This document shows positions 19,098 to 61,730 of a stretch of DNA of 64,000 nt, piece by piece. The DNA lies in assembly GCA_965221775.1 (NCBI GenBank), contig CBDCSU010000006.1:1568001-1632000 (forward strand). The letters run 5' to 3'. The DNA comes from Candidatus Latescibacterota bacterium (GTDB taxonomy: Bacteria; Latescibacterota; UBA2968; UBA8231). The translations under genes were made by a program, and so were the position numbers. Every line of letters begins with the position of its first letter. Within the stretch, counting starts at the first letter, position 1. The notes below the pieces were generated by a model. It searched no databases, had not been told where the DNA came from, and worked only from the letters and a program-made list of their open reading frames with translations.

Positions 19098-19449
19098 GGG
19101 GGTCTGGCAAGGGACGGTGCCGGCGGCTCCGGCCGCGCCTCGGCGGCGCGTACGCCGGGCCTGGGGGGTGGGACTATCGACTTGGGGTGGTTCGTGGGGC
19201 TGGCGAGCCCCTCGCTGCGCTCGGGTCTCTGGGCCTCCTGGATGCGTGGTGGTTGTTGACCCCGGCCCGGCGTAATGCGCCGCTCGGCTCGGCCTGCGCC
19301 TCCGTCACCGCCCATAGGGGGGACCACCCACCACACACTGTTCTGGGCCGGGTGGCGCCTGGGGGTGGTTCGGGGCCGGGGGTGGCTCCGGCGCCACTCG
19401 ATCTGGTGGTACGCCGGTTTGCTGGGCCAGGGTTGGCGGGGATCCCGAA
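19098..19449 (+). repeat. Dispersed hairpin repeat copy A (modules 1+2)
   Basis: Conserved blocks CGGCGGCTCCGGCCGCGCCTCGGCGGCGCGTACGCCGGG, CTATCG, GGGGCTGGCGAGCCCCTCGCTGCGCTCGGGTCTCTGGG, GTTGACCCCGGCCCGGCGTAATGCGCCGCTCGGCTCGGCCTGCGCC, CCGGCGCCACTCGAT. Confidence 0.95.
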
Positions 19450-19492
19450 CTACTCCAGGACTCCCTCCCCCTGAGGCGCGGGGGATTCGACG

Positions 19493-21364
19493 TCAGGAGC
19501 TCGCACCGCCGGACTGCACCTGGCTCACGTCGCGCACCGCACCCTGGGCGGCGCTGGTCGTCAGGGCCGCGTAGGCCTGCAGAGCCGCCGAGACCCGCCG
19601 CCGCCGCTTGAGGGGCTGCCAGGCGGCCTCACCCAGTCCTTCCATCCGCTGCCGCCGCTCCTCCAGCTCCTCGTCGGAGACCAGCGCGTCGATGCGGCGG
19701 TTCGGGGTGTCGATGCGGATGACGTCGCCCTCCTCCAGCAGTCCGATGGCGCCGCCCTCGGCCGCCTCGGGCGAGACGTGGCCGATGGAGAGGCCGCTGG
19801 TGCCGCCGGAGAACCGGCCGTCGGTGAGCAGGGCGCAGCGGGCGCCGAGCTGCTTGGCCTTGATGTAGGAGGTCGGGTAGAGCATCTCCTGCATGCCGGG
19901 TCCGCCCTTGGGCCCCTCGTAGCGGATGACGACCACGTCGCCGGCCTGGATGCGGTCGCCGAGGATCGCCTCGCAGGCGGCCTCCTGGGACTCGAAGATG
20001 CGGGCCGGCCCCTCGAAGGTCAGGATCGACTCGTCGACGCCGGCGGTCTTGAGGATGCAGCCGTCCCCGGAGAGGTTGCCGAAGAGGACGGCGAGGCCGC
20101 CGTCCCGCGAGTAGGCGTGCTCGGCCGAGCGGATGCAGCCGTCGCGGTCGTCGAGGTCCGGCGCCTCGTGGTAGTTGGCCTGGGAGAAGGCCTCCTTGGT
20201 GCGCACCCCGCCCGGGGCGGCCAGGGCCCGCTGGCTCGCGGCCTCGGAGGGGCTGCCGCCGCGCAGATCCTCGGCGGCGATCAGGTCGCCCATGGTGCCG
20301 CCGGCGACGGTGCGCGCCCGGGCGTGGACGAGGCCGGCCCGCTGCAGCTCCCCCATGATGGTGGGGATGCCGCCGGCGCGGGCCACGTCCTCCACGTGGA
20401 ACTCCTGCGACGCCGGCGCCACCTTGCAGATGCAGGGCACCTGGCGCGACAGACGGTCGATGTCGGCCATGGTGAAGTCGACGCCGGCCTCGCGGGCCAT
20501 GGCCAGCAGGTGCAGGACAGTGTTGGTGGACCCGCCCATGGCGATGTCGAGGCTCATGGCGTTCTCGAAGGCCTCGAAGGTGGCGATCGAGCGCGGCAGC
20601 ACCGAGCTGTCCTTGCCGCGGTAGTAGGCCTGGGCCATCTCGACGATGCGCTCGCCGGCCCGCTCGAAGAGGGACCAGCGCAGCGCGTGGGTGGCCAGGA
20701 CGGTGCCGTTGCCGGGCAGGGCCAGGCCGATCGCCTCGTTGAGGCAGTTCATCGAGTTGGCGGTGAACATGCCGGAGCAGGATCCGCAGGTGGGGCAGGC
20801 GGCGGCCTCCATCTTCTCCAGCTCCTCGTCGGAGACGCGGTCGTCGCCGGCGGCGACCATGGAGTCGACGAGGTCGAGCTTGGCCGGCCCGGTGGAGAGC
20901 TGCTCGCGGCCGGCCTCCATGGGTCCCCCGGAGACGAAGATCGTCGGCAGGTTGAGGCGCAGGGCGGCCAGCAGCATGCCGGGGGTGATCTTGTCGCAGT
21001 TGGAGATGCAGACGAGGGCGTCGGCCTTGTGGGCGTTGACCATGTACTCCACGGAGTCGGCGATCAGCTCGCGGCTGGGCAGGGAGTAGAGCATGCCGTC
21101 GTGGCCCATGGCGATGCCGTCGTCCACGGCGATGGTGTTGAACTCGACGCCGTAGCCGCCGGCCGCGTCGATGACCTGCTTGACGCGCTGGCCGATGGGG
21201 TGGAGGTGGACGTGGCCGGGGACGAACTGGGTGAAGCTGTTGGCGATGGCGACGACGGGTTTGAGGAAGTCCTCGGTCTTCATGCCGGTGGCGCGCCAGA
21301 GAGCGCGGGCGCCGGCCATGCGGCGGCCCTGGGTGGTGATGGAGGAGCGGTAGTCGGAGGGCAT
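19493..21364 (-). CDS. ilvD: Dihydroxy-acid dehydratase
   Basis: [70 protein letters not shown]. Confidence 0.97.
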
Positions 21365-21395
21365 TCTGGGGGTCCGGTTTGGGGGTGTGGATGGG

Positions 21396-21775
21396 GTTGG
21401 ATTGGATTGAAGATAGGGGTGGGTGGGGGGTTCTGGGAGGGGGCGGTGCCGGCGGCTCCGGCCGCGCCTCGGCGGCGCGCCGGGGCCTGGGGGGGTGGGG
21501 CTATCGACTTGGGGTGGTTCGGGGGGCTGGCGAGCCCCTCGCTGGGCTCGGGTCTCTGGGTCCTCTTGGATGCGTGGTGGTTGTTGACCCCGGCCCGGCG
21601 AAGTGCGCCGCTCGGCTCGGCCTGCGCCGCCGTCACCGCCTCACGGGGGGGACCTCACCCACACACTGTTTCTGGGCCGGGTGGCGCCTGGGGGTGGTTC
21701 TGAGCCGGGGGTGACTCCGGCGCCACTCGATCTGGTGGGGCGCTGGCCTGGTGGGGTGCTGTTGGTGGGGGATCC
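21396..21775 (+). repeat. Dispersed hairpin repeat copy B (modules 1+2, extended left leader)
   Basis: Same conserved blocks as copy A; leader GTTGGATTGGATT..AAGATA shared with copy E. Confidence 0.95.
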
Positions 21776-21982
21776 TTAGATGTCGACGATCTCTTCAGAC
21801 ACCGGAGGCGGTATGGGATCACCATGCGCAGCAAGGCTCTCCAGGTACAAGGTTATCGCCTCGCGGATGCCGCTCAGCGCCTCCTGACGTGTGGCACCCT
21901 GGCTGATGCAACCGGGGAGTGAGGGGACTTGGGCGACGAAGACCCCATCTTCATCGTGCTCGATCAAGACACGGTATCTCAT
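21776..21982 (-). CDS. hicB: HicB family antitoxin (orphan)
   Basis: MRYRVLIEHDEDGVFVAQVPSLPGCISQGATRQEALSGIREAITLYLE; no adjacent hicA. Confidence 0.88.
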   Translation of the reverse strand: MRYRVLIEHDEDGVFVAQVPSLPGCISQGATRQEALSGIREAITLYLESLAAHGDPIPPPVSEEIVDI

Positions 21983-22045
21983 CGGTGAGCTCCGGAAAGT
22001 GCGATGAAAGGCAGACGACAACTCGGGGCTGCTTCACGGCCAATC

Positions 22046-22190
22046 GGTGTGGGGAGGGTGTCTGCCCGGGGCAGTTCCGAGCGGCTCGGACTCGCCTCGG
22101 CGCCGCGTATGGGGGCCTAGGTGGTGGAGCTATCGGCGCCGGTGGTTCGAGGGGTCGGCGAGCCCCCCACTGCGCTCGGGTCTCTCGGCC
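22046..22190 (+). repeat. Degenerate 5' part of the dispersed repeat (copy C)
   Basis: gcggctcggactcgcctcggcgccgcgta..gtggtggagctatcg..ggtggttcg..ggcgagcccc..ctgcgctcgggtctct. Confidence 0.85.
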
Positions 22191-22419
22191 CGGTGCACCT
22201 ACAGACAGATATCACTTCAACACCCACCTGACCCAACCCTCATCGACAAGCGGCTCGAAGGGAGGTGCCACCGGTGTCCGGTCTCCCCAGAACCCGCTTC
22301 AATGTCAACCTGATCCGATGCTCCATCGGAAGGGGCCTTCCAATCCAGGCAGGACTTCACCCCGGGCGACCACGCTCAAGACCACTCATCGATGCGCCCC
22401 TCCACCCAACGGAGCCCCA

Positions 22420-23286
22420 CTACCTCTTGGCCATCTCAATCAACTTCCTGCGCAGTGACCCCAATCTTGCCAGACTGCAATGCCTGGCTAGCCTGAGCCT
22501 CAACGACTTCCTACTCACACTTCCACCTCCCGCGCGACCAATCTCAATCCCAACTGCCCTCAGCAGGAAGTCCTTCCCGGATACAGTGTCCATCGAATCC
22601 CCCACACTGGCCATGTGGCTCTCCACTTCCTGCTTCGCGCGCAAATAAGCACTCTCTTCCGTACTCGCCAGTACCTCCCTTCGAACCTCTGACTTCACCG
22701 CCTTCGCTTTGGTGGGATCGATCTCCGGAGCGCTACCCTTCTTGTGAGTCAAGACGCTTCCCAAACCCCTCGATACCGTCTTGACACTCGGACACAGGCG
22801 AAACGCAACTGCAAATTCCAGGAAGAGCGGAACGAGGTTATCCTCGAGACGCTTCCTAAATGCACTCCAGTCCAGCCTCTCTCTCGCTTCCTCCGGTGTC
22901 AACTCTCCACTATTCTCCACCATTACTTCTATTGTCGCTTTCTCACAGAACAAGTAGTTCTCTATACAATAGCATGCGTGGATGTAGAGATGTGGGTACG
23001 ATGGCACAGGCAAGCCCGCCACCCCATGCAGGTCTCCATCGACCACAAACAATGCAGGCCGGGAGTCAGTGTACTGTTGGGCTCTCTCCAAGACCTGCTG
23101 CCGGCCCCCCAAAGGGAATACCTTCTCTATCCTGAGACTGTCGCCCATCAACCGCTTCAACAGTTCACTGTAGAATACTTCACTCCCGACATCTTCCACA
23201 TAGACATCTATGTCCTGAAGCGACCGATAGAAAATCGCCTTGCTTGGGAGGGCTCTCTCGGGAAACCGTGGTAACTGAGGTTTCAT
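22420..23286 (-). CDS. DUF4435 TOPRIM-like nuclease (PARIS AriB-like)
   Basis: VYVED, FVVDGD, YCIENYL, VSGKDFL; translationally coupled to the upstream ATPase. Confidence 0.82.
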   Translation of the reverse strand: MKPQLPRFPERALPSKAIFYRSLQDIDVYVEDVGSEVFYSELLKRLMGDSLRIEKVFPLGGRQQVLERAQQYTDSRPALFVVDGDLHGVAGLPVPSYPHLYIHACYCIENYLFCEKATIEVMVENSGELTPEEARERLDWSAFRKRLEDNLVPLFLEFAVAFRLCPSVKTVSRGLGSVLTHKKGSAPEIDPTKAKAVKSEVRREVLASTEESAYLRAKQEVESHMASVGDSMDTVSGKDFLLRAVGIEIGRAGGGSVSRKSLRLRLARHCSLARLGSLRRKLIEMAKR

Positions 23287-24650
23287 TCTTGCTCCGCTTC
23301 AACACCCGTAACCGGAACACAGAATTCATCTCTGCCGCCAACGATCGCCGGAGCATGAGTAGCAAGTATGAGCTGTAGGCGGGGATTTGCTTTCTGAATT
23401 GCTCCCACAAACATGTCTTGCCAGTCCAAATGGAGGGATAGTTCTGGTTCGTCGACAACAAACACCCCATCGCCAGGCAATCTTCTGTCTAGCGCCAAAT
23501 GGGCAAGCATAATGAAGATTTGCCTCTCCCCCGATGACAGTGCAAGTAGAGATGCCTTCTCGCCATTGGGCATTCGTATGCTGACATCACCTTCACGCCC
23601 TACTTCTACGTCTTTCCCAGTCTGGGCAAAGAACTCGTTCACAAGCTTCACAAAGTCAGTCAAGGGCTTGTAGGTTGTCTCAGTCTGTTCCTGGTATTTG
23701 GTAGTTATATCGAACAGCCGATTGATGCGATCCATCTGCGATTGATTGACAAACCACGCAGTTAGTGCCTCGGATGCTTCTTTATCTAGCTCTTCACCCG
23801 TCCGCGCTCTCTTGGATACATCCCGGATCTTATTTATGATGCCTTCAATCGCACTGAAGAAACCTATCGACCGCTGCTCAAATTCCTCAGAAGCCACGTC
23901 CAATCCCAGGAGAGCTGCAGAAATCGCGTCCCGCTTCCTTCGGAAGTCTGCGAATTCAGCTTCCGAAGGTGGATCGAACGAAAACCCCCGCGTCGATTGT
24001 TCGACATAGGGAAAGGATTCCAAGAGCAGTTCCTTCCGGTACTTGTCATTTACACGCTCTTGTGCACCATGGAGCCGGGATACGTAGGTCTGGATTATCT
24101 CCGCCACCTCGGCTAGCCCTGGATCATATGTCTCCCCCTCGATATCCATACGCTCGCGGCGAAAACGCGATGCGAGTTCCCGTGAGGAGTGCCGTCTAAG
24201 TCTCTGTCTCCTGCGCTCCGGTGAAATGAACCGACGCTCTATGCCCAGAAACATAGGGCTTGAGATATCCCGAATTGTCAGGAAGACTTCGCTACGCGCT
24301 TCCTCCCGCCCGATAGCTTGTGGCTCCTGCTCGGACTCCATCTCTTCAATAGCAACATCGAGGATGCCATCAACCGCCGAGCACTCGAGTGTCACTCTTT
24401 CTTCTGACTTCGTTGCGCGAATACTGATTTCCCCGTGCTGACGACTTACTCCAGTTACTGTCGCGGACTCAAAGCCAATGGAGTATAGCGTTTCAAGAGA
24501 TGGCTGAAGCAGTCCCATTATCAATCGAAGAGCCGTTGTCTTCCCTGATCCGTTAAGCCCGTACAGAAAGGTCAATTCCGGATGGAACTCTATGTCCATG
24601 TCTAGGTGTGAAAAAACCCTTGTGGCGTGGAATGCTCTCAGGTGCTTCAT
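23283..24650 (-). CDS. ABC/AAA_15-AAA_21-type ATPase (PARIS AriA-like)
   Basis: GLNGSGKT, LSSGERQ, VVDEPELSLH, LATHAP; visibly lower GC than the flanks. Confidence 0.85.
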   Translation of the reverse strand: MKHLRAFHATRVFSHLDMDIEFHPELTFLYGLNGSGKTTALRLIMGLLQPSLETLYSIGFESATVTGVSRQHGEISIRATKSEERVTLECSAVDGILDVAIEEMESEQEPQAIGREEARSEVFLTIRDISSPMFLGIERRFISPERRRQRLRRHSSRELASRFRRERMDIEGETYDPGLAEVAEIIQTYVSRLHGAQERVNDKYRKELLLESFPYVEQSTRGFSFDPPSEAEFADFRRKRDAISAALLGLDVASEEFEQRSIGFFSAIEGIINKIRDVSKRARTGEELDKEASEALTAWFVNQSQMDRINRLFDITTKYQEQTETTYKPLTDFVKLVNEFFAQTGKDVEVGREGDVSIRMPNGEKASLLALSSGERQIFIMLAHLALDRRLPGDGVFVVDEPELSLHLDWQDMFVGAIQKANPRLQLILATHAPAIVGGRDEFCVPVTGVEAEQE

Positions 24651-24934
24651 CGCTTTGACCTCCTAGTGTAGCTCGCCCTGTCTTGCCGTGACCCGGCGCC
24701 TTCTGCTGGACACAGGCGGGATATCCCCTGGGGGGGAAGGCGCAGGATTGCCAATAGTAGGGTGTTTCGGGCCGGAGGCAACTCATCGGGGACAATCGCC
24801 CGAGTCAGAATCGGCCAAGGCGCGGCGGGCCTGCAGATGATCGATCCCCTGGGCCACCAGACCGTACTGACCCCCTTCGTGAGTTCCGCCCTGTGGATTT
24901 GTGTTGGACCATTGCCAGCCATACAATCCGCCCC

Positions 24935-25800
24935 ATGCTCACGGGCATCGCCTACATCGAGATGCGGACGCGCTTGTGGGAGGAGTGCCGGGAGGTCTAC
25001 GGCAAGCACCTCGGCCTCACCGAGCTTCAGAACACCACCGCCGTGCAGAACGAGAAGGGCGAGTGGGTGGATGCCGCCGCCGAGAGCGGAGACCGCGAAG
25101 CCGTCCTCCGGGTGGGCGACTCCTTCCTGGTTCTGCGCGAGGACGAGACGGCCCCCGTGCTGCTGTCCCCGGAGGGCGAGAGGACGGGGCAGGCTTACGG
25201 CTCGGTCGGACACTGGTCCTTCTACGTCGAGGGCAACCACCATGCCTTCTCCCACCTCGAGCGCTTCTTCGCGTCCAACAGGTTCCGCGCCACGAAGGAC
25301 GGGCCGATCGTGCAGCTGATGGACCATGCCTACATGCAGAGGAGCCTGCTGGAGTTCGTCGATCCGAACGGCTACCCCATCCAGATCTCCGAGATCGTGG
25401 ACCCGAGGCTGCACAACCAGGAGAGGCGGCGGGAGAAGCAGCGGATCGCCAACCTTTCCGCCGGGAGCCTCCTCAAGGGTTTCGATCACATGGCCATGGA
25501 GTGCCCTGACATCGCCCGGGGGAAGGAGATCTATGGGGACATGCTGGGGCTGTCCGTCATCGACCACTCCGACAGCGGCACGCACGAGGGGTACGTCTTC
25601 GCCGCCGGCATGTGCGACATCGAGCTGCGGGGGAGGAAAGAGGGCGGGAACGCCGATGGTCTCGGCCGCGGTGTCGTGGGCTCCTTCGGGCTCTGGACGG
25701 ACGACGTGGACGCCCTGGCCAGGGAGATCGCCCACGATACGCCGCCTGAGGAGCGCGACCTCGCCCTGGGCGTGCCTATCCGGTCCACCCTCGTCGCAGG
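24935..25800 (+). pseudogene. Two-domain VOC/glyoxalase family protein, apparently 3'-truncated or lacking its own stop
   Basis: FVDPNGYPIQISE, GFDHMAMEC..YGDMLGL. The frame runs on to 27052 over the next gene as Arg/Pro-rich shadow sequence. Candidate leaderless promoter TTGTGT-17-TACAAT. Confidence 0.55.
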
Positions 25801-25832
25801 AGACGGCTCCCGGAGGTCGCCCGGAGACCGTC

Positions 25833-27023
25833 ATGAAGATCGTCGACCTGAGGTGCGCCGTCATCGGCCGGCATCCCATCGTCCGCATCCTCACGGACGA
25901 GGGGATCGTCGGGACAGGGCAGGTGGAGTCCTCCAAGCCCTACCTGAAACCGCACGTCCTCTTCTATCGCGACCTCGTTCTGGGCATGGACCCGACCGAT
26001 GTCGAGCGGGTCATGCTCGGCATCCGGCGGCTCGGGGGTTTCAAGCCGTGGGGCAGTGCCGTCAGCGCCATCGAGATGGCGCTCTGGGACATCGCCGGCA
26101 AGGCCGCGGGGGTTCCGGTGTACAAGCTGCTGGGCGGCAAGATCCGCGACCGGGTGCGGGTCTACCTGACCGGCTCCCCGGTTCCGGTAAAGACCTCCCG
26201 GCCCGAGGAGTACGCCGCCGCCGTCCGCGCCGCGCGGGAGCTTCCGCAGGGGTTCACCATTCTCAAGATGGGCGTCTCCTTCCACAGCGGCATGCCCGCG
26301 CACGTCCCCGGCTTCTTCTACGGGGAGAGCTCGGGCGGCCGCTGGCACGCCAACCGGGGGCCGCTGACGGAGCGGGGGCTGAAGCACGTGATCGCCTGCG
26401 CCGAGGCGATGAAGGAGGAGCTGGGAGACGAGGTCGGTCTCGCCCTCGACTGTGGTCCGGGGATGACGGTGCCCGACTCGATACGGCTGGCCCGGGCCGT
26501 GGAGCCGCTCAACCTGATGTGGCTCGAGGACATGATCACCGGCGACTACGTCCCCTATGTGCTCGCCGACCTCTACCGGGAGGTGACGCGCAGCACCTCG
26601 ACGCCGATCCACACGGGGGAGCAGATCTACCTGCGGCAGCATTTCAAGGAGCTCTTCGAGAAGCAGGCGGTGAACGTCGTAGGCCCCGACCCGGCCGACG
26701 TGGGCGGGATCGCGGAGACGAAGTGGATCGCAGAGTACGCCGACCTCCACGGCATCCTGATGGCCCCCCACGGAGTGATCGACGGGCTCTTCGGACTGGC
26801 GGCCCACGTCCATCTCGCCGCCGCCCTGCCGCAGAACTACCTCGCCTTCGAGATGCCGGGCCGGTACGAGGAGTCCTGGCTCGACATGGTCTCCGGGCTG
26901 CCCGACCCGATCGTCGCCGACGGACACATCGAAGTGTGGGACTCCCCGGGACTGGGGGTGGAGTTCGTCGTCGAGGAGGCGAAGCGGCACCTGTCCGAAG
27001 AGGATGCCGGTTTCTTCGACTGA
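25833..27023 (+). CDS. Mandelate racemase/muconate lactonizing enzyme family protein
   Basis: MKIVDLRCAVIG, IEMALWDIAGK, LLGGKIRDRVRVY, ALDCG, WLED, TGEQ, PGLGVEF. Confidence 0.9.
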   Translation: MKIVDLRCAVIGRHPIVRILTDEGIVGTGQVESSKPYLKPHVLFYRDLVLGMDPTDVERVMLGIRRLGGFKPWGSAVSAIEMALWDIAGKAAGVPVYKLLGGKIRDRVRVYLTGSPVPVKTSRPEEYAAAVRAARELPQGFTILKMGVSFHSGMPAHVPGFFYGESSGGRWHANRGPLTERGLKHVIACAEAMKEELGDEVGLALDCGPGMTVPDSIRLARAVEPLNLMWLEDMITGDYVPYVLADLYREVTRSTSTPIHTGEQIYLRQHFKELFEKQAVNVVGPDPADVGGIAETKWIAEYADLHGILMAPHGVIDGLFGLAAHVHLAAALPQNYLAFEMPGRYEESWLDMVSGLPDPIVADGHIEVWDSPGLGVEFVVEEAKRHLSEEDAGFFD

Positions 27024-29970: not shown

Positions 29971-30333
29971 GGGGGGCGGGGTGGGGTTCTGGCGGGGGCG
30001 GTGCCGGCGGCTCCGGCCGGGCCTCGGCGGCGCGTACGCCGGGCCTGGGTGGTGGAGCTATCGACTTGGGGGGGTTCGTGGGGATGGCGAGCCCCTCGCT
30101 GGGCTCGGGTCTCTGGGCCTCCTGGATGCGGGTGGTTGTTGACCCCGGCCCGGCGTAATGCGCCGCTCGGCTCGGCCTGCGCCGCCGTCACCGCCCATGG
30201 GGGGACCACCCATCCACACACTCTTCTGGGCCGTGTGGCGCCTGGGGGTGGTTCCGGGCCGGGGGTGGCTCCGGCGCCACTCGACTCGGTGGGGCGCCGG
30301 CCTGGTGGGGTGCTGTTGGTGGGGAAGCCCGGA
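29971..30333 (+). repeat. Dispersed hairpin repeat copy D (modules 1+2)
   Basis: Same conserved blocks; fills the whole gap between convergent genes. Confidence 0.95.
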
Positions 30334-31590: not shown

Positions 31591-31960
31591 GTTGGATTGG
31601 ATTGGGTTCAAGATAAGGGTGGGAGGGGGGGTCTGGCAGGGGGCGGTGACGTCGGCTCCGGCCGCGCCTCGGCGGCGCGTACGCCGGGCCTGGTTGGTGG
31701 GGCTATCGCCTGGGGTGGATTCGTGGGGCTGGCGAGCCCCTCGCTGCGCTCGGGTCTCTGGGCCTCCTGGATGCGGTGCTTGTTGTCGCGGCCCTGCGTA
31801 ATGCGCCGCTCGGCCCGGCCTGCGCCGCCGTCACCGCTCTGAGTGGAACCTCACCCACAGACTCTTTTCTGGCGGGTGGCGCTTGGCAGGGGTTCTGAGC
31901 GGGGGGTGACTCCGGCGCCCCTTGGTACGGTGGCGCCGGGCTGCTGGGCTGGCGTTTGCC
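31591..31960 (+). repeat. Dispersed hairpin repeat copy E (modules 1+2, extended left leader)
   Basis: Same conserved blocks; arms GCGGTGACG/CGTCACCGC. Confidence 0.92.
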
Positions 31961-31963
31961 GGG

Positions 31964-32430: not shown

Positions 32431-32677
32431 GAAGAAACCCCGATCAACGCGTCCTGCCGCACAACATCCGCGGCCTGTGGAATGGATTGGCGGGCATCCC
32501 CACCCCCGACTTGCAGAGTAGAACGGCCAAGGATCTTTCGCAACCCTCTTCTCTATGGGACACGCCGGAAGGCGCTGCGACCGCCAGGAGGGAGGTCGGT
32601 TCCCGCCTTGAAGAGCATGGCCCCTGTGCTCGGCCGGCGTGGTCATCTCGCCTGGAGCTGGTCCGGGGGGCCGACGA

Positions 32678-32740
32678 GTTGACCCCGCGCCCCGGAGGCT
32701 CGGCCTGCGCCACCGGCACCGCCCTTGGGGGAAGCACCCA
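32678..32740 (+). repeat. 3' fragment of repeat module 1 (copy F)
   Basis: gttgacccc...ggctcggcctgcgccaccggcaccgcccttggggg. Confidence 0.75.
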
Positions 32741-39150: not shown

Positions 39151-39245
39151 TGGCCGTGTGGCGCCGGGCGGGGGTTCTGTGCCGGGCGGTGTCGCCGGCG
39201 CCACTCGATCCGGTGGCGCGCCTGGACTGATGGGCGCTGTTGGGG
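39151..39245 (+). repeat. Stand-alone module 2 of the dispersed repeat (copy G)
   Basis: tggccgtGTGGCGCCGG..ggggttctg.gccggg..CCGGCGCCACtcgatc.ggtgg. Confidence 0.85.
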
Positions 39246-39394
39246 GCATGTTCGACTGCTGGAAACCCGCTCCTTACTCTTCGGTTGAGACCGGGGTAGC
39301 GGTGCTTACGTTACGCACCGATGAAGAGCATGGACATGGATAGGGAGAGATCGCTGATGTGTCTTGCAGCCGTGATTCACAGGGCGGAGGCCCC

Positions 39395-40768
39395 ATGGAG
39401 CTGACGCTCTACGACTCCTACTCGCGAAGCGAACGCGTCTTCGAGCCCCTCGGGTCGCCCGTCGGACTGTATGCCTGCGGGCCGACAGTCTACGACTACG
39501 CCCACATCGGCAACCTGAGGACCTACGTCTTCGAGGACGTGCTGCGGCGGGTGCTGGAGCACAACGGCTACGAGGTTCACCATGTAGTGAACATCACCGA
39601 CGTGGGTCACCTGACGTCGGACGCGGACACGGGCGAGGACAAGATGGAGCGGGGAGCGCGGCGCACCGGCAAGAGCGCCTGGTGGGTGGCGGACTTCTAC
39701 ACCCGGGCCTTCGAGGAAGACCTGCGCCGGCTCAACGTCCTCGAGCCGACGGTGTGGTGCAAGGCCACGGCCTACATCGACGAGCAGATCGACGTCATCC
39801 GCTCGCTGGAGGAGCGCGGCTTCATCTACAAGACCTCCGACGGGATCTACTTCGACACCTCCCGGCAGCCGGACTACGGCCGGCTGGCGCGGTTGGATGC
39901 GAAGGGGCTGCAGGCCGGCGCCCGCGTCGAGCTGGGCGAGAAGCGTCTGGCCACGGACTTCGCCTTGTGGAAGCTGAGCCCGGCCGACAGCAGGCGGCAG
40001 ATGGAGTGGGACAGCCCCTGGGGGCGGGGGTTCCCGGGGTGGCACACGGAGTGCGTGGCCATGTCGCAGTCCCATCTGGGCCCGCAGTTCGACATCCACT
40101 GCGGCGGCGAAGACCATCTCGCCATTCACCATGTGAACGAGATCGCCCAGGCCGAGGCCTGCTACGGGACCCGGCTCGCCCGGTTCTGGATGCACGGCCG
40201 GTTCCTGGTCCTCGACGACGAGCGCATGTCCAAGTCGAGCGGGTCCTTCCTGACTCTCGACAGCCTGGTCGAGGCGGGATACGACCCGCTGGCCTACCGG
40301 ATGTTCCTGCTCGGGGCGCACTACCGGCGGCCCCTCAGCTTCAACTGGGAAGCCCTTGACGCGGCGACGGCGGCCCTGGAACGGCTGCGCCGCACCGCCC
40401 ACGCCTGGGGTCCCGCCGGCGAGCCGGACCCGGCCTCCCTCGAGGCGTTCACGCGCTGCCTCAACAGCGACCTCAACATGCCCCGGGCCCTGGCCGTGGT
40501 CTGGGACCTGGTGCGGTCGGAGCTTCCCGACCAGGTGAAGAAGGGGACGCTGCTGGCCTTCGACAGCGTCCTCGGCCTCGGTCTGGCCGACTGGGAACCG
40601 CCCCAGGAGGAGATTCCGCCCGAGGTCGAGGAGATGGTGCGGCGGCGGACCGAGGCCCGGGGGCAGCGGGACTTCGAGACTGCAGACGCCCTCAGGGCGC
40701 AGATCCTCGAGGCCGGGTTCGACGTGGACGACCTGCCGGACGGCCCGAGGGTGAAGAGGCGCTCCTAG
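39395..40768 (+). CDS. cysS: Cysteine--tRNA ligase
   Basis: YACGPTVYDYAHIGN, NITDVGH, DFALWK, PGWHTEC, DIHCGG.D, RMSKS. Confidence 0.96.
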   Translation: MELTLYDSYSRSERVFEPLGSPVGLYACGPTVYDYAHIGNLRTYVFEDVLRRVLEHNGYEVHHVVNITDVGHLTSDADTGEDKMERGARRTGKSAWWVADFYTRAFEEDLRRLNVLEPTVWCKATAYIDEQIDVIRSLEERGFIYKTSDGIYFDTSRQPDYGRLARLDAKGLQAGARVELGEKRLATDFALWKLSPADSRRQMEWDSPWGRGFPGWHTECVAMSQSHLGPQFDIHCGGEDHLAIHHVNEIAQAEACYGTRLARFWMHGRFLVLDDERMSKSSGSFLTLDSLVEAGYDPLAYRMFLLGAHYRRPLSFNWEALDAATAALERLRRTAHAWGPAGEPDPASLEAFTRCLNSDLNMPRALAVVWDLVRSELPDQVKKGTLLAFDSVLGLGLADWEPPQEEIPPEVEEMVRRRTEARGQRDFETADALRAQILEAGFDVDDLPDGPRVKRRS

Positions 40769-40975
40769 GCAGGGGCGGCGCCGGCGGCTCCGGCCGCGCC
40801 TCGACGGCGCGTACGCCGGGCCTGATTGGTGGGGCTATCGACGGGGGTGGTTCGTGGGGTTGGCGAGCCCCTCGCTGCGCTCGGGTCTCTGGGTCCTCTT
40901 GGATGCGGGTGGTTGTTGACCCGGCCGGCGTAATGCGCCGCTCGGCTCGGCCTGCGCCGCCGTCGCCGCCCTGGG
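40769..40975 (+). repeat. Dispersed hairpin repeat copy H (module 1 only)
   Basis: Starts right after the cysS stop; arms GGGCGGCG/CGCCGCCC. Confidence 0.95.
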
Positions 40976-41044
40976 CTCCCCGTGCCGGATGAACTTTTCC
41001 CCGCTGACGTCCGCCTTGCAGTGTGGAAGGGTGGACGACGCATC

Positions 41045-42489: not shown

Positions 42490-42519
42490 GGGCCTGGCGA
42501 GCCCCTCACTTCACTCGGG
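42490..42519 (+). repeat. Short core fragment of the dispersed repeat (copy I)
   Basis: gggcctggcgagcccctcacttcactcggg versus consensus ggggctggcgagcccctcgcttcgctcggg; overlaps the cupin stop codon. Confidence 0.65.
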
Positions 42520-42849
42520 ACGCCACGCCGGGTGGGTGACATGCAGCAGAAAGGCCCGTTCCGGCACGGTGATGATCGTCTGCGTCCCCTTCTCGATGAA
42601 GCCCAGGTCCCCCGCCTCGTATCGCACCGGATCCTGGCCCTCGACCTGGACCTCCAGGTGCCCCTCCAGCATGTAGAAGACCTCGTCGTAGTCGAAGTTC
42701 CACGTCAGCCGGCTGGGCTCGACATACTCGGTGAAACCGGCCGACAGCCTGTCGCCGGCGCTTCTGATGGGATCGGAAACCCGCACGGTGGCGCCGGGCG
42801 CATCATAGGCGGCCAGGCCCCTCTGATCCTTCTGCACTCTCCAGATCAC
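42511..42849 (-). CDS. EutQ-like cupin protein
   Basis: LSAGF, WNFDYDEVFYMLEG.L, AGDLGFIEKG, VTHPAW. Confidence 0.82.
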   Translation of the reverse strand: MIWRVQKDQRGLAAYDAPGATVRVSDPIRSAGDRLSAGFTEYVEPSRLTWNFDYDEVFYMLEGHLEVQVEGQDPVRYEAGDLGFIEKGTQTIITVPERAFLLHVTHPAWRPE

Positions 42850-44610: not shown

Positions 44611-44654
44611 TTCCTCGAGCCGCTGGCGCGCCGATCTCTGGGTGACAACCGCCC

Positions 44655-44683
44655 TTGACGTGGGTGATTATCACCCATATCGT
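44655..44683 (+). promoter_or_regulatory. Candidate leaderless sigma70 promoter with palindromic operator filling the spacer
   Basis: TTGACG, TGGGTGAT-T-ATCACCCA (17 bp), TATCGT, 6 bp, ATG at 44690. Confidence 0.6.
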
Positions 44684-44689
44684 GGGTCC

Positions 44690-49665: not shown

Positions 49666-49669
49666 AGGT

Positions 49670-51597: not shown

Positions 51598-51920
51598 GGG
51601 TCTCCTCGTGCTGGCGGTGCCCGGCGGCTCCGGCCTCGCCTCGGCGGCGCGTACGCCGGGCTTTAGTGGTGGATCTATCGCCTTGGGTGATCCTCAGGGC
51701 TGGCGAGCCCCTCGCTTCGCTCGGGTCTCTGGGCCTTCTGGATGAGTTTGGTTGTTGACCCCGGCCCGGCGTAAGGGCGCCGCTCGGCTCGGCCTGCGCC
51801 GCCGGGCACCGCCCAGGGTTCGGATTGCTGCCCACCCCTCGCTTCTCTTGTGGGTGTGGCGCCGGGTGGGATTCTGTGCCGGTGGTGGATCCGGCGCCAC
51901 TCGATGCGGTGCCCGCAGGC
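51598..51920 (+). repeat. Dispersed hairpin repeat copy J (modules 1+2)
   Basis: Arms GGCGGTGCCCGGCGGC (51613-28) / GCCGCCGGGCACCGCC (51798-813). Confidence 0.95.
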
Positions 51921-52546: not shown

Positions 52547-52840
52547 GGGTCTCCTCCTGGTGGGCGGTGACTGCGGCTCCGGCCTCGCCTCGGCGGCGCG
52601 TACGCCGGGCTGCGTTGGTGGATCTATCGCCTTGGGTGATCCTCAGGGCTGGCGAGCCCCTCGCTGCGCTCGGGTCTCTGGGCCTTCTGGATGAGGCTGG
52701 TTGTTGACCCCGGGCCGGCGTAATGCGCCGCTCGGCTCGGCCTGCGCCGCCGTCACCGCCCAGGGGTTGGATCGCTGGCCACATGCGCCGGTGGTGACTC
52801 CGGCGCCACTCGATGTGGTGGTGCGCTGCCCTGGTGGGGC
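52547..52840 (+). repeat. Dispersed hairpin repeat copy K (module 1 + shortened module 2)
   Basis: Arms TGGGCGGTGAC (52561-71) / GTCACCGCCCA (52752-62); centre almost identical to copy J. Confidence 0.95.
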
Positions 52841-52955
52841 CGCGTCGTCACAGAAGCCGTACAATAGCGCAAGCCAGCTGCGGCTGGTCCCGATGAATTG
52901 CCGACGATTCGCCGGTTCCCGGTCCCCTTCGTCGAAAATGTACCCATTGCGAATA

Positions 52956-55217
52956 ATGAAGATGATCTTGTTCCCTTTGGCCCTCCTGCTCGGCACCCTG
53001 TCCATCCCGCCGGGCAGCCAGGCTCAAGACCATGCCCGCTGGGGGTTGCCGGAGGGTGCCGCCCTCCGTCTGGGCAAGGGGCGCACCGGTGAAGGCGACC
53101 GGGCCGTGGCTTACTCCCCCGATGGCACCCGGCTGGCGGTGGCCGGCAACCTCGGCGTCTGGCTCTACGATGTCCACACGGGTGCCGAGGTCGCCCTGCT
53201 CACAGGCCATGCTGCTCCCGTAAACTCCGTGGCCTTTGCGCCGGATGGACAAACCCTCGCCAGTGCGAGTGCCGACCATACGGTGAGGTTGTGGGACATC
53301 GAGACGGCACGGTCAGAGGTCACCCTCGAAGGCCATCTGAAGGATGTCCTCTGCGTCGCGTTCTCCCCGGACGGACAAACCCTGGCTACCGGCAGCAGGG
53401 ACCAGACAGTGCGGTTGTGGCAGGCGGCCACCGGAGAGCCGAAGGCTACCCTCCACGGAGAAGCGTCCTCGGTCAATGCTCTGGCCTTCTCCCTCGATGG
53501 TCAAACCCTCGCCAGTGGCTACCGAAACGGCACCGCTCGGTTGTGGGACGGATTTACCGGAGAACCCGGGGCCGCCCTCGAAAGAGGCCGAGCGGGGCGC
53601 ATCAATACGGTAGCCTTCGCGCCCGATGGTCAGACCCTGGCCACTGGCAGGCAGCAAACGATCGACTTGTGGGACGTCAACAGCGGACAGCCGCGAGCCA
53701 CCCTGCACGACATGGGCGTGCATACATCCTGGGTCAACTCCGTAGCCTTCTCACCTGATGGCAGGACCCTCGCCAGCGTGGGCTCGAACCACGTGATCGC
53801 GTTGTGGGAGATCGACTCCGTGCAACGAAAGGCCAAGTTCAAGGAGCGAGGCGCCGACTTCACTTCCGTGGCCTTCTCGCCCGATGGAACTACACTCGCC
53901 AGTGCCGGGAGGGACAACAGAATACGGCTGTGGGACGTCCGCACCGGACTGGAGGAGATCACTATCCTGGACCATGGGCATGGGGACAGGGTCAGTTCCG
54001 TTGCCTTCGCCCCCGATGGCACCACCCTCGCCAGCAGTAGCTGGGACGGGACGCTGCGACTGTGGGACCTCGGCACGGGACAGGCAGAAGCCACCCTGAA
54101 GACCCCTTGGGGGCCTGTCAGTTCTGTTGCTTTCTCGCCCGATGGCGAAACCCTCGCAAGTGGCCATTGGGTTTACTTCGTTATGCTGCTGGACATCGCC
54201 GCATTCCGGAAGGCCACCTTGGAAACCTCGACCATCTCCTGGAGAACGTCGTTGACGAGGATCCTCAAAGGCCATCGGAATGATGTGCTCTGCGTGGCGT
54301 ACGCCCAGGATGGAGAGACCCTGGCCAGCGGCGATGAGAACGGGATCGTGCGGTTGTGGGACGTGTCCAGCGAGCAGGAACGGGCTACCCTGCAGGAACA
54401 TGGTGAACGTGTCCTGTCCGTGGCCTTCTCGCCCACTGGAGAGGTGCTCGCCAGCGCCAGCGGAGACGAGACGGCGCGGGTCTGGGATGCGGACAGTGGA
54501 CAACTGAAGTCCACTCTGCGGCACACGGGCTGGGTCACTTCCGTTGCTTTTTCGCCGGACGAGAGAACCCTCGCCAGCGGGGGCTGGGATCAGAAGGTCA
54601 GGCTGTGGGAGCTGAGCAGTGGCCAGCAAGTGGGCACCCTCGAGGTCGATGGCTCCTGGATCAATGCGGTAGCCTTCTCGCCTCGCGGAAACGTCCTTGC
54701 CAGCGCCGGTTCGGACCAGACCGTCAGGCTGTGGGAAGTGAGCACCGGGCAGCCAAGGGCCGTCTTCAAAGGCCATGTGGAATCGGTCCTTTCGGTGACG
54801 TTCTCGCCGGACGGGAACCTCCTTGCCAGTGCCAGCACGGACGGCACGATTCTGCTGTGGGATACGTCCCCATCCGCCGCTCCGCCCGCGCCGACGGCGA
54901 TTCGGGTTGCCACGCCGCTGCCGGCGCGGACGGCGCTGCTGGCCAACTTCCCCAATCCCTTCAATCCGGACACCTGGATTCCGTTTCAGCTCCACGCGCC
55001 GGCTCACGTACGGCTGAACATCTACGATGTGCGGGGAGCCTTGGTGCGCAGAATCGACCTGGGTCATCGTGCGGCGGGCCAGTACCTGACCCGTGCCGGC
55101 GCCGCCCACTGGGATAGCCGCAACCATCGCGGTGAACGGGTGTCCAGCGGCGTCTATCTGTACTCCCTGCAGGCAGGGCCGGCCACCCACGTACGCAAGA
55201 TGGTCCTCACCAGGTAG
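52956..55217 (+). CDS. Secreted WD40-repeat protein with FlgD-Ig/T9SS-sorting-like C-terminal domain
   Basis: Signal peptide; WGLPEGA..RLGKG; about 14 GH..V.SVAFSPDG.TLAS...D..VRLWD repeats; LLANFPNPFNPDTWIPFQL...VSSGVYLY.L..RKM. Confidence 0.92.
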   Translation: MKMILFPLALLLGTLSIPPGSQAQDHARWGLPEGAALRLGKGRTGEGDRAVAYSPDGTRLAVAGNLGVWLYDVHTGAEVALLTGHAAPVNSVAFAPDGQTLASASADHTVRLWDIETARSEVTLEGHLKDVLCVAFSPDGQTLATGSRDQTVRLWQAATGEPKATLHGEASSVNALAFSLDGQTLASGYRNGTARLWDGFTGEPGAALERGRAGRINTVAFAPDGQTLATGRQQTIDLWDVNSGQPRATLHDMGVHTSWVNSVAFSPDGRTLASVGSNHVIALWEIDSVQRKAKFKERGADFTSVAFSPDGTTLASAGRDNRIRLWDVRTGLEEITILDHGHGDRVSSVAFAPDGTTLASSSWDGTLRLWDLGTGQAEATLKTPWGPVSSVAFSPDGETLASGHWVYFVMLLDIAAFRKATLETSTISWRTSLTRILKGHRNDVLCVAYAQDGETLASGDENGIVRLWDVSSEQERATLQEHGERVLSVAFSPTGEVLASASGDETARVWDADSGQLKSTLRHTGWVTSVAFSPDERTLASGGWDQKVRLWELSSGQQVGTLEVDGSWINAVAFSPRGNVLASAGSDQTVRLWEVSTGQPRAVFKGHVESVLSVTFSPDGNLLASASTDGTILLWDTSPSAAPPAPTAIRVATPLPARTALLANFPNPFNPDTWIPFQLHAPAHVRLNIYDVRGALVRRIDLGHRAAGQYLTRAGAAHWDSRNHRGERVSSGVYLYSLQAGPATHVRKMVLTR

Positions 55218-57825: not shown

Positions 57826-58050
57826 GGGGGTCTCGCCTCGGGCGGGCGTCGCCGGCGGCTCCGGCCGCGCCTCGGCGGCGGCGTACGCCGGAGTGGTTGG
57901 GGGGACTATCGCTGAAGGGGATCCTTGGGGCTGGCGAGCCCCTCGCTGCGCTCGGGTCTCTGGGCCCTCTGAAATGAAGGAGGTGATGACCCCCCGGCGT
58001 AATGCGCCGCGACGGCGCGGCCTGCGCCGCCGGCGACGCCCTTGGAGGGG
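57826..58050 (+). repeat. Dispersed hairpin repeat copy L (module 1)
   Basis: Arms GGGCGTCGCCGGCGGC (57844-59) / GCCGCCGGCGACGCCC (58026-41). Confidence 0.93.
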
Positions 58051-58140
58051 AGGGTTTGTGGTCGGCGGCGTGGCCAAGTGCAGAGGAGGACTCGCGACGG
58101 GAATGTGGTGAAAGATGGACATGGGACTTTGGTGCCGGGA

Positions 58141-59881: not shown

Positions 59882-59918
59882 GGGGCGGCCTAAATTACGC
59901 GCCAGCCGGCCCAGAGCC

Positions 59919-61370
59919 ATGAACCGCCCCAACATCCTCTTCATCCTCTCCGACCAGCACAGCAAGCACCACCTCGGCTGCTACGGCGACCCGGTGGTGC
60001 GCACCCCGCACCTGGACCGCCTGGCCGGGGAGGGGATGCGCTTCACCAATGCGTACACCGCCTCGCCTTTGTGCGTGCCGGCGCGCATGGCCTTCATGAC
60101 CGGGCGGCGGCCCAGCGCCAACGAGGCCTGGCTCAACGAGCACATCCTCAGCTCGGCCCTGCCCACCTGGGCTCACGCCCTGGGCGCCGCCGGATACGAG
60201 ACCGCCCTCATCGGCCGCATGCACTTCGTCGGCCCCGACCAGCGCCACGGCTTCGAGCGCCGGCCCATCGGCGAGTATGCCATGTATCCCGGAGCGGCCC
60301 GGCAGGGCGCGCCCATGTTCAAGACGATCCCCGCCAGCACCTCGGGCCAGACCCGCGAGTCCGTCGAGATCGCCGGCCACGGCCGCACCACGTACCAGTC
60401 CTTCGACGACCGCGTCGCCGACGCGGCCTGCGCCTACCTGGAGGAACAGGCGCAAGGGCGGGGCCGGCCCTTTGCCGCGGTGGCCGGCTTCCTGCTGCCC
60501 CACTGCCCGTTCTTCGCGCCCAGGGACCTCTACGACTACTACTACGACCGCGTCGACGTGCCGCAGCCCGACCCGGCCGGGGAGCCGGCGGCGGTGACCA
60601 ACTTCAAGAAGCACCGCGGCATCGCCGAGCCCCTGCCCGAAGAGCGCATCCGCGTGGCGCGGGCGGCCTACTTCGGCCTGTGCGAGTACTTCGACCGCAA
60701 GGTCGGCCAGCTCCTCGACACTCTCGACCAGACCGGTCTGAGCGACAACACCCTGGTGGTCTACGCCAGCGACCACGGCGAGATGGCCGGCGAGCACGGC
60801 TGCTGGTGGAAGAGCAACTACTACGAGGGCTCGGTGGGCGTCCCCCTCATCGCCCGCCTGCCCGGGGTGGTGCCCGCCGGCGTGGAGAGCGCGGCGATCT
60901 GCAATCTGCTGGACTGGGCCCCTACCGCCGTGGAAGTGGCCGGCGGCACACCCATGCCCGCCCTCGACGGCCATTCCCTGTGGAGCGAGATGCGGGGCCT
61001 GCCGGACGAGTCCCGGCCCGATGTCACATTCAGCGAGCTGGGGCCGACTCGGGGGGATCCTCCTTCACGGATGATCCGGCGCGGACCGTGGAAGCTGTAT
61101 GCGTATCACGGGGACACGCCTCCGGCGTTGTTCAATCTGGAGGATGACCCGGGGGAGTGGAACGACCTGGCCGGAGATGACGCTTGCCGCGCCGTGCGGC
61201 AGGAGTTGCTGGAGCAGCTCTACGAGGGCTGGGACCCGGAGCGGGTGGCGCGGCGCAGCGCCGAGCTGATGCGGGACTCGGAGGTTCTGGTGGCATGGGG
61301 GGAGGCGGTGCAGCCGGTGCATGAGGATACGCTGGCGGTGGAGGATGTAGAGGATGTGGTGCGCTGTTGA
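59919..61370 (+). CDS. Sulfatase (choline-sulfatase-like)
   Basis: RPNILFILSDQH, TPHLDRLA, SPLCVPAR (CxPxR), GRMH, PH.P, SDHGEM, LFNL..DPGE. Confidence 0.92.
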   Translation: MNRPNILFILSDQHSKHHLGCYGDPVVRTPHLDRLAGEGMRFTNAYTASPLCVPARMAFMTGRRPSANEAWLNEHILSSALPTWAHALGAAGYETALIGRMHFVGPDQRHGFERRPIGEYAMYPGAARQGAPMFKTIPASTSGQTRESVEIAGHGRTTYQSFDDRVADAACAYLEEQAQGRGRPFAAVAGFLLPHCPFFAPRDLYDYYYDRVDVPQPDPAGEPAAVTNFKKHRGIAEPLPEERIRVARAAYFGLCEYFDRKVGQLLDTLDQTGLSDNTLVVYASDHGEMAGEHGCWWKSNYYEGSVGVPLIARLPGVVPAGVESAAICNLLDWAPTAVEVAGGTPMPALDGHSLWSEMRGLPDESRPDVTFSELGPTRGDPPSRMIRRGPWKLYAYHGDTPPALFNLEDDPGEWNDLAGDDACRAVRQELLEQLYEGWDPERVARRSAELMRDSEVLVAWGEAVQPVHEDTLAVEDVEDVVRC

Positions 61371-61730
61371 GGGGTGGTGGGTGGTTCCGCTTGGCCGGGC
61401 GGTGCCGGCGGCTCCGGCCGCGCCTTTGGCGGCGCGTACGCCGGGCCTGGTTGGTTGGGGCTATCGACTGGGGGTGGGTTCGTGGGGCTGGCGAGCCCCT
61501 CGCTTCGCTCGGGTCTCTGGGCCCTCTTGGATGCGTGCAGGTGGTGACCCCGCCCGGCGTAGTGCGCCGCCCAGGCGCGGCCTGCGCCGCCGGCACCGCC
61601 CTGCGTGGGTGAGATCCGGCACACTCTTTCTTGTGAACCGGGGTGGCGCCTGACGGGGTCCTGGGCCGATGGTGGGTCCGGCGCCACTCGATCTGGTGGG
61701 GCGCCAGCTTGGTGGCCTGTTGTTGACGGG
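61371..61730 (+). repeat. Dispersed hairpin repeat copy M (modules 1+2)
   Basis: Arms GGGCGGTGCCGGCGGC (61397-412) / GCCGCCGGCACCGCCC (61586-601). Confidence 0.95.

Follow-up and report, generated by a model that had tools for sequence, protein, structure and literature searches.

The window, the whole 64-kb stretch of DNA analysed here, carries nine full copies of a non-coding hairpin repeat, a solitary second module and three fragments, all on the + strand. Full copies and the longest fragment were located with a profile HMM built from the nine full copies, for which it returned E-values of 1e-34 to 1e-57, and with a covariance model, on which the nine score 168-219 bits. Module 1 of copy 1 lies at 19100..19326 (218.9 bits), its module 2 then reaching to about 19450, and module 1 of copy 2 (21429..21654, module 2 at 21679-21779) is directly preceded by the kind of extra upstream stretch that some copies share (about 21380-21428). 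A fragment made up of left arm, linker and core occupies 22075..22225 and stops right behind the core, where low-GC foreign DNA starts. Copy 3 (29984..30209, module 2 at 30233-30333) and copy 4 (31629..31852, module 2 at 31874-31965) are followed by a fragment holding the right arm only (32673..32732, repeat family D18) and by a module 2 standing alone (39157..39257, repeat families D10 and D12). Copy 5 (40761..40984), located between cysS and an ECF sigma gene, is without module 2, and a core fragment (42491..42539, repeat family D7) marks the junction of the sigma gene with an EutQ/PhyH block. The remaining copies are copy 6 (51601..51827, module 2 at 51853-51911), copy 7 (52550..52774, partial module 2 at 52787-52862), copy 8 (57832..58054, without module 2) and copy 9 (61385..61614, module 2 at 61640-61740). 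The original prediction had listed these same 13 copies and fragments, and all of them exist, the nine full copies being recovered by both models where it had placed them. Their non-coding, intergenic placement, which it had also claimed, is borne out by comparing ORF with element coordinates, and the first 19 kb, said to be free of the repeat, hold no HMM or covariance model match; the observation of the repeat family as a whole is confirmed.

Module 1 is an imperfect hairpin of about 205 nt whose arms, each about 50 nt long, enclose a conserved core (about 43 nt) as well as two linkers that are variable. Module 2 (about 130 nt), usually present after module 1, looks like a partial second copy of the module 1 left arm and first linker. 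The arm sequences first quoted for the family agree with the consensus of 27 aligned copies and do pair. In the RNAalifold structure 97.0% of the cells are standard pairs, compared with 38-52% when the partners are slid by 1-3 columns, and folding as single-stranded DNA has a z-score of -5.5 for the + strand and of -8.4 for the - strand. The outer stem comprises 33 pairs with invariant internal mismatches and one bulged base; among 48 copies double compensatory changes occur at about 16 of these 33 pairs, and a diverged copy present in another genus has preserved the stem, its changes being fully compensated. Outer-stem mismatches are without strand bias (21 G.T versus 16 A.C) and so give no support for a structure formed in RNA only. 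The predicted inner hairpins are rich in G.U pairs on the + strand only (302 G.U versus 10 A.C cells), and these pairs carry no covariation because they are almost invariant. Paralogs share 0.89-0.96 identity over arms and core and 0.71 over the linkers, the value for 4-fold sites between species being 0.82; the alignments indicate that the hairpin is under selection, with arms and core conserved beyond neutral sites. All through the copies the + strand is rich in G and T (G 42%, C 31%, T 19%, A 8%). A G-quadruplex was dropped as a general feature, the strict four-run motif overlapping just three of the nine window copies. A protein-coding module 1 was rejected as well: the + strand does have an open frame, yet it is shifted from copy to copy by indels of a single base, and the invariance of the core at all codon positions of this frame also counts against coding.

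The copies are not dispersed: in the 5.36-Mb genome (G000) every one of the 14 forward matches falls on the + strand within C6:1587100-1664103, a single 77-kb stretch that extends 32 kb past the window and places four of the matches beyond its end, and no full or arm-only match was found elsewhere in the genome. Start-to-start spacings in this array are 2.3, 0.6, 7.9, 1.6, 9.1, 10.8, 0.9, 5.3, 3.6, 24.8, 3.0, 6.4 and 0.3 kb. The array occupies a conserved region about 142-220 kb from dnaA; the minimum of the cumulative GC skew lies at about 1.37 Mb, versus dnaA at 1.806 Mb. All four sequencing runs examined consist of assembled contigs, and the short-read contigs of the likely source run end at the repeats. 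The same co-oriented array is found in the syntenic region of sister genomes of an uncultured Gemmatimonadaceae genus. In G006 and G007, both complete, the strong matches all fall on the same strand within one stretch of 60-65 kb, and the copies of G002 share a strand within each contig. Copy number is 11-14 in one clade of the genus, and G001, G003, G008 and G009 have 1-3 weak matches each. A scan of species-representative genomes for the core motif delivered 24 stretches, 21 from this genus and three from one AT-rich Bacteroidales MAG, and metagenome contigs delivered two, one of them from this genus; no recombinase was seen beside the hits outside the genus in the DNA examined. The core motif had no match in a viral contig collection, and a plasmid collection searched with the element gave one short chance match and nothing else. 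The units are known solely from one co-oriented array, and solely from this one genus of uncultured, sponge-associated Gemmatimonadaceae.

The distance between the left edge of module 1 and the end or start of the adjacent gene is 3-79 nt; in six of 13 copies it is the stop of a plus-strand gene that lies there and in another six the start of a minus-strand gene. Copies of the latter kind sit directly upstream of these starts and must therefore be transcribed or carry a promoter; no consensus for a sigma-70-type promoter or an intrinsic terminator was found in copies 1-4. All four arrangements of flanking genes occur, and co-orientation of the repeats holds regardless of the direction of the neighbours. 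Contigs of one RNA run cover the neighbouring genes at about 90-95% likeness and leave the copies without usable cover; these are assembled contigs without start, end or strand and are uninformative on transcription or circular forms.

Sites filled in one genome and empty in another were compared for two copies. The site of copy 1 is empty in G007, and its nearest relative is copy 3, 10.9 kb away (95% over module 1); the site of copy 7 is likewise empty in G007, with the nearest relative 0.95 kb away (91%). New copies thus appear nearby and in the same orientation. In both comparisons the old spacer was replaced and extra flanking sequence was brought along, with no clean insertion. The empty site of G007 between convergent GNAT and dehydratase genes carries a small hairpin instead, so what the repeat replaced was a terminator-like spacer. 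The absence of a clear target-site duplication, as originally claimed, was borne out, the longest k-mer common to both flanks averaging 5.0 versus 4.5 after shuffling. Three-way comparisons around moved modules show the copies to be mosaics of one another; a fixed crossover point was rejected, since the mosaics have no common switch point, and the fragments break at differing positions.

Most copies occupy orthologous positions in three species, which points to slow turnover. Modules adjoining the repeats have been gained, lost and reordered between genomes, never inverted. The order of the sigma block and the EutQ/PhyH block is swapped between G000 and G006/G007, that of a 501-aa block and an AP-endonuclease block is swapped in G006, and the DAO gene is found in differing compartments. 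Synteny breaks concentrate at the repeats. When ends of collinear blocks were counted as near if at most 150 nt from a repeat, a zone that takes up 10% of the span, 16 of 44 ends were near a repeat between G000 and G007 (binomial test, p = 2.6e-6; 20 of 44 if a repeat in either genome counts) and 14 of 40 between G000 and G006 (p = 1.8e-5; 18 of 40), figures to be read with the caveats that breaks fall in intergenic DNA anyway and that block ends are not independent events. Ends away from any repeat form the majority, with 24 of 44 (G007) and 22 of 40 (G006).

Foreign cargo lies between two copies where sister genomes carry one copy or none, and it is lineage-specific. The PARIS-like defence pair of G000 (22420..24650, - strand; AriB 22420-23286, AriA 23283-24650) belongs to a block of 54.5% GC that abuts the fragment at 22075..22225, which ends at the core. 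A Gabija system in G007 is enclosed by a pair of copies with 77% likeness over 460 nt, and a sigma/FecR/TonB-receptor/DUF4249 block in G000 by a pair with 80% likeness; the nearest relatives of this block (84%), in G007 and G002, occupy another locus without repeats.

The original prediction had offered a non-autonomous mobile element, a structured ncRNA or a recombination-site family. That interpretation as a whole is partly supported: the recombination-site family fits best, and a mobile element in the MITE or REP sense is unsupported. As it had noted, no transposase, integrase or reverse transcriptase lies beside the family. Its statement that no named family matches also stands, searches for Rfam, integron, Y1, TnpB and IS110 families all failing to support one: at gathering thresholds Rfam had no match over the 64-kb window, a locus with two copies gave no more than two matches at chance level (E>6), and the genome (96.8% complete) contained no gene for Y1_Tnp, TnpB or IS110. 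Seven Phage_integrase hits are present, the nearest more than 450 kb from the array. The complete, repeat-rich G006 has three and repeat-poor members of the genus have more, and identification of a recombinase through co-occurrence was given up, as these counts do not rise and fall with the number of repeats. A non-autonomous transposable element (MITE or palindrome-associated) with its transposase lost or elsewhere would fit the arms, which are inverted repeats around a short non-coding centre, and the raised copy number in one clade, features in which the repeats resemble MITEs. It is nevertheless largely refuted and very improbable: there is neither dispersal nor a copy in opposite orientation, no parent element or target-site duplication was found, new copies replace the spacer and bring their flanks along, and the viral and plasmid collections hold nothing similar. 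Members of the REP/BIME, ERIC and REPIN families are scattered along the chromosome in either orientation, with a RAYT (Y1) gene accompanying REPINs. The repeats described here are likewise non-coding, hairpin-forming, intergenic and probably co-transcribed with their neighbours, but differ from REPs and REPINs in their confinement to one strand of one stretch and in the zero Y1_Tnp matches. The attC sites of integrons have the end motifs RYYYAAC on the left and GTTRRRY on the right. GTTRRRY is found near the right end in one of the 27 full copies and RYYYAAC near the left end in none, and the best match to the integron integrase model TIGR02249 reached 62.9 bits against a cut-off of 265. That the array is a true integron remnant, an attC cluster without integrase (CALIN), is highly doubtful, even though its repeats too are co-oriented imperfect hairpins with conserved bulged or unpaired bases that separate unrelated genes, are more alike within the array than between lineages, enclose cargo where relatives have a single site and, as in CALIN, have no integrase nearby. 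They differ in the length of module 1, in the additional second module and in the position of the 43-nt core in the loop; the modules (0.3-25 kb) are multi-gene and on both strands, junctions are imprecise, and the array is largely syntenic between species. IntegronFinder groups sites less than 4 kb apart on one strand, and the largest cassettes are given as about 2 kb (Cury et al. 2016, PMC4889954); the repeats do share one strand, but six of the 13 spacings exceed 4 kb, with maxima of 10.8 kb inside the window and 24.8 kb past its end. Gemmatimonadota are listed among the integron-bearing phyla in a review (PMC8618304), which is in favour of a remnant.

A cis-acting structural or regulatory element of a region of catabolic and eukaryote-like-protein genes, with the rearrangements as by-products of many similar direct repeats, is somewhat unlikely. 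It could be a 3' UTR, 5' UTR or intercistronic hairpin (a terminator, insulator or stabiliser in the manner of ERIC/BIME) or a protein-binding DNA site. The closeness of the left edges to plus-strand stops and minus-strand starts, which would put the copies within transcripts, agrees with it, as do the terminator-like spacer replaced at the G007 site, the conservation of arms and core, the G/T-rich + strand and the diverged single copies of other genomes, which again adjoin PhyH, GNAT, heparinase, glycosidase and ankyrin-sigma genes. Strict co-orientation whatever the direction of the neighbours argues against it, and so do the outer stem without G.U over A.C bias and the lack of promoter or terminator consensus in the copies examined; it leaves the confinement to one region unexplained, similar genes being present genome-wide (119 PhyH hits), as well as the cargo flanked by two copies. 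A family of trans-acting sibling sRNAs transcribed from the + strand would draw on the conserved structure with its highly conserved apical core, on the single strand used by all copies and on the inner hairpins rich in + strand G.U pairs. The near invariance of these pairs, the missing promoter and terminator consensus and Rfam match, the copies abutting coding ends within a few bases, the frequent fragments and half-copies and the lack of usable cover in the RNA contigs, themselves uninformative on transcription, make it quite improbable.

We tentatively favour, at somewhat less than an even chance, the reading that the repeats are recombination junctions of an operon-scale array of modules, acting like integron attC/CALIN sites without being members of that family. 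The family resembles a new gene-shuffling site, not a jumping element. Two co-oriented repeats would exchange, resulting in Campbell-type insertion or excision of a piece consisting of a repeat plus cargo, and gene conversion and copy-paste would act alongside. Such exchange could be the work of host recombination, homologous or linked to replication, or of an unlinked recombinase recognising the conserved arms and core; host recombination is as likely a driver as a dedicated enzyme, because the junctions are imprecise and no recombinase is linked. Such exchanges would have the effect of an integron cassette array at operon scale without an integrase. Against the junction reading stand the slow turnover, the many block ends away from any repeat and the copies upstream of minus-strand starts; moreover, arms and core may be conserved in sequence for another function, such as binding of a protein or a role in a transcript. 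Precedents for its parts are known: dif-like sites of 28 bp flank Xer-dependent gene modules on Acinetobacter plasmids, and a cholera phage uses a folded single-strand attachment site, a hairpin of about 150 nt, as recombination site. The array is similar in that its modules have repeated sites at their borders on which an unlinked tyrosine recombinase of the host could act, and differs from Xer modules in that its repeats are far longer than 28 bp and no dif-like site was identified in them. It is unlikely, yet conceivable, that the array is an undescribed platform for gene capture with the repeats as its attachment sites, where an unlinked host recombinase would act on the folded units (about 200 nt, with their conserved core). 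Such a platform would be integron-like on the scale of operons while having none of the parts of an integron. Sponge-symbiotic Gemmatimonadaceae would then use one chromosomal locus to insert whole operons, excise them and change their order, with PARIS, Gabija, the TonB-receptor signalling unit and glycan-degradation modules as cargo.

To our knowledge, only integrons are well understood among the bacterial platforms on which genes are stacked at folded hairpins; a dedicated integrase, short attC sites and cassettes of one gene each define them. The hairpin described here is much longer and conserved in sequence, it marks the joints between modules the size of operons at one locus, and no dedicated enzyme was found. 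Should the repeats be transcript or protein-binding elements instead, they would still represent a cis element under selection that is unusually long, specific to one lineage, restricted to a single region and without a described relative. If the repeats do bring about the exchanges, structured repeats together with host recombination can give rise to modular shuffling of genes, and the array would provide a handle on variation of defence and host-glycan gene sets in uncultured sponge symbionts.

All copies reported in the original prediction, namely nine with a full module 1 (a long imperfect hairpin), one with only module 2 (which resembles a partial second unit and usually lies 3' of module 1) and three fragments, were recovered in place when the sequence was analysed for repeats and scanned with a profile HMM and with a covariance model, and by the same methods the first 19 kb of the window contain no copy. 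HMM E-values for the copies in the window range from 1e-34 to 1e-57, and the arms as first quoted match the consensus built from three genomes (27 aligned copies). In the whole genome (G000; 5.36 Mb in six contigs, 70% GC), of which the window spans C6:1568001-1632000, the HMM gave 14 matches, all on the forward strand of contig C6 from 1587111 to 1664129, and the covariance model, applied as originally suggested, returned the same 14 forward matches. Four copies of this array lie outside the window, up to 32 kb past its end, and neither model found a copy in the genome outside the array. The first inspection could not match the element to a named family; the Rfam comparison likewise gave 0 matches at gathering thresholds, with noise (E>6) only on a two-copy locus, and a literature search, mainly without full text, found no description of such an element.

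Repeat matches occur in 11 of 132 genomes of the class. Strong matches, 2 to 15 per genome, are found in six genomes of the genus (G000, G002 and G004-G007), and one to three weak, diverged matches each in G001, G003, G008 and G009 of the same genus and in G044 of another genus. G006 and G007, both complete, likewise carry a single co-oriented array of 60-65 kb; it occupies the region syntenic with the window, where the encoded proteins are 80-97% identical. The array starts 142-143 kb from dnaA, on the strand of dnaA, in G000, G006 and G007 alike. On contig C6 the cumulative GC skew minimum lies at about 1.37 Mb versus dnaA at 1.806 Mb. The sequencing runs containing this stretch are mostly sponge metagenomes; nothing similar to the element was found in viral contigs and plasmids. 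An AT-rich MAG labelled Bacteroidales (loci L034, L045 and L048) carries a different, GC-rich intergenic repeat in which 26 consecutive bases are shared with the core of the element, an identity unlikely to arise by chance at that base composition; no link to the element was found, and Rfam gave nothing.

Module 1 measures about 205 nt in the order left arm, linker, core, linker, right arm. According to RNAalifold the arms form 33 base pairs, interrupted by internal mismatches that are invariant and by a bulged base, and 97.0% of cells are paired in this structure versus 38-52% with the partners slid. The outer stem of 48 forward copies, diverged ones included, comprises 1401 Watson-Crick cells, 21 G.T, 16 A.C and 36 others, with double compensatory changes in about 16 of the 33 pairs, and in the G044 copy the stem is preserved through blocks of fully compensated changes. 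Since G.T is not in excess over A.C, the stem is equally good on either strand; folding as DNA gave z = -5.5 for the forward and -8.4 for the reverse strand. Module 2 contains an invariant inverted repeat of 8-9 bp with a loop of about 30 nt, and towards its 3' end it is similar to module 1 from the left arm through the first linker; past the end of the window, one tandem pair has a second unit that extends to a right arm. In locus L022 of G007, immediately beyond the right end of the copy whose ortholog in the window is 57832-58054, the right-arm end plus about 50 nt is repeated in tandem at least three times, a 288-nt expansion specific to G007 that suggests slippage at the right end of the element.

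Across nine orthologous genes, G000 and G007 agree at 0.819 of fourfold sites (n=2637). Orthologous copies share identities of 0.905 and 0.917 in the two arms, 0.927 in the core and 0.76 in the linkers; the corresponding values for paralogs within G000 are 0.889 and 0.898, 0.955 and 0.71-0.72, with 0.37-0.38 in the flanks. Conservation of arms and core thus extends to the sequence and is not confined to structure, while the linkers drift. This sequence-level constraint, seen even in single diverged copies, says that something also reads the element; candidates are a recombinase, some other DNA-binding protein and RNA of neighbouring transcripts.

The copies are strictly co-oriented however the genes on either side run, and all four gene arrangements are present; most copies occupy orthologous positions. 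Copies starting at 19111 and 52561 are absent from G007. Comparison of these filled and empty sites did not bear out the mobile element that was among the options first envisaged, as the old spacer of 65-120 nt was replaced in both. Copy 19111, whose identity to copy 29996 is 95%, brings about 60 nt of the right flank of the latter, and a dehydratase gene takes its stop codon and the few codons before it from copy 19111. Mosaics also occur: one copy combines the arms of its ortholog with a centre of another type, and the neighbouring copies 51619 and 52561 have common linkers that are missing from their orthologs.

A repeat is found within 150 nt of a collinear block end in 16 of 44 cases (G000-G007) and 14 of 40 (G000-G006), or 20 of 44 and 18 of 40 when a repeat in either genome is counted; this is far above expectation, with only 10% of the span so close to a repeat, though block ends are not mutually independent and breaks prefer intergenic DNA anyway. 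More than half of the block ends lie away from repeats. Reordering without inversion affects a sigma factor gene versus EutQ/PhyH, a 501-aa gene versus an AP-endonuclease block, and a DAO gene; at the old place of the sigma gene in G007 a remnant like its 3' end persists, which makes this event a duplication followed by deletion and not a clean swap. The slot right of copy 2 (21429-21654) holds low-GC defence cargo that differs between genomes. In G000 it is a PARIS-like pair (AriB 22420-23286, AriA 23283-24650) that adjoins a fragment stopping at the core end; the low-GC insertion (22420-25936, 54.5%) also contains an ORF of 429 aa that matches nothing in Pfam or PADLOC. In G007 it is a Gabija pair (GajA/GajB, L024:5998-9649, 58.7% GC), flanked by two copies with a likeness of only 77% over 460 nt; of all family members, the right-hand copy is the most diverged. 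Two copies in G000, where G007 has one, enclose a sigma/FecR/TonB-receptor/DUF4249 block. For its receptor genes the nearest relatives (84%) belong to another locus of G007 and G002, which corresponds by synteny to G000 C5:686-701 kb and is free of repeats. At this non-array locus in G007 the TonB-dependent receptor gene, intact in G002, is broken by an insertion of 1.35 kb (L072:9013-10365) that carries ORFs of 275 and 114 aa, both on the minus strand.

Several neighbouring genes deserve mention. G000 has 119 matches to PhyH (phytanoyl-CoA dioxygenase), about one per 45 kb, with 11 in the roughly 100 kb around the array; none was found in 14 control genomes. An ECF-type sigma factor (40982-42445) has a C-terminal extension of about 290 aa without family match, and in G000, G006 and G007 its gene comes after a repeat copy; G044 encodes a sigma-ankyrin fusion (L065:12056-14341) 2 kb from a diverged copy. 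An 838-aa WD40 protein (52701-55217) has at least 11 repeats, which also show in the DNA with a period of 126 nt (families D5, D8, D11), and its gene adjoins ankyrin and HEAT-repeat genes, which are typical of sponge symbionts. A gene running off the window start (1-1500) contains DNA repeats spaced 171-339 nt (families D15-D17). Two paralogous AAA_14/DUF4143 ATPases are present (44642-45919 and L002:3883-5142); one, encoded after a PIN-domain gene, matches the PADLOC candidate family PDC-S01 with 367 bits, and the other adjoins a repeat copy.

Co-orientation, confinement to one locus and cargo bracketed by two copies point to an orientation-preserving process between copies and not to transposition. 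Exchange between co-oriented repeats would give exactly such products, by Campbell-type insertion or excision of a one-repeat piece together with gene conversion and local copy-paste. We therefore tentatively read the repeats as junction sites of an array of operon-scale gene modules. The recombination-site option of the original prediction is strengthened to that extent, while its mobile-element option loses ground to co-orientation, the single locus and the absence of target-site duplications from the flanks of the copies. REP/REPIN and MITE families differ from the element in distribution, orientation and insertion signature, and a defunct MITE is very unlikely. In working, the element comes closest to attC sites as they occur in sedentary integrons or in a CALIN (an attC cluster without integrase), but a true integron remnant is the least credible reading, as integrase, end motifs, site size, spacing and cassette size all fail: the attC end motifs occur at one end in 1 of 27 copies and at the other in none, and no integron integrase scored above cut-off in G000.

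That genome, 96.8% complete, also gave no match to Y1 transposase, TnpB zinc-ribbon or IS110 DEDD domains, and its seven Phage_integrase hits all lie more than 450 kb from the array; the repeat-rich complete G006 has three, fewer than repeat-poor members of the genus. The tyrosine recombinases common to the genus comprise an Xer-like pair and a protein of 436 aa. ORFs between the copies match no recombinase or transposase family in Pfam, in agreement with the first inspection. Imprecise joints and the lack of a linked recombinase argue against a precise integron-like enzyme at every event. A cis-acting transcript or DNA element, which the sequence conservation of arms and core would also suit, we consider possible but doubtful; a family of sRNAs is improbable. 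For junction sites, the simplest agent is host homologous or replication-linked recombination, to which the near-invariant 32-nt core would offer the longest available stretch of identity; within this reading we allot about two thirds of the weight to general recombination and roughly one third to a dedicated or Xer-type enzyme. We file the element as a hairpin-bounded module array.
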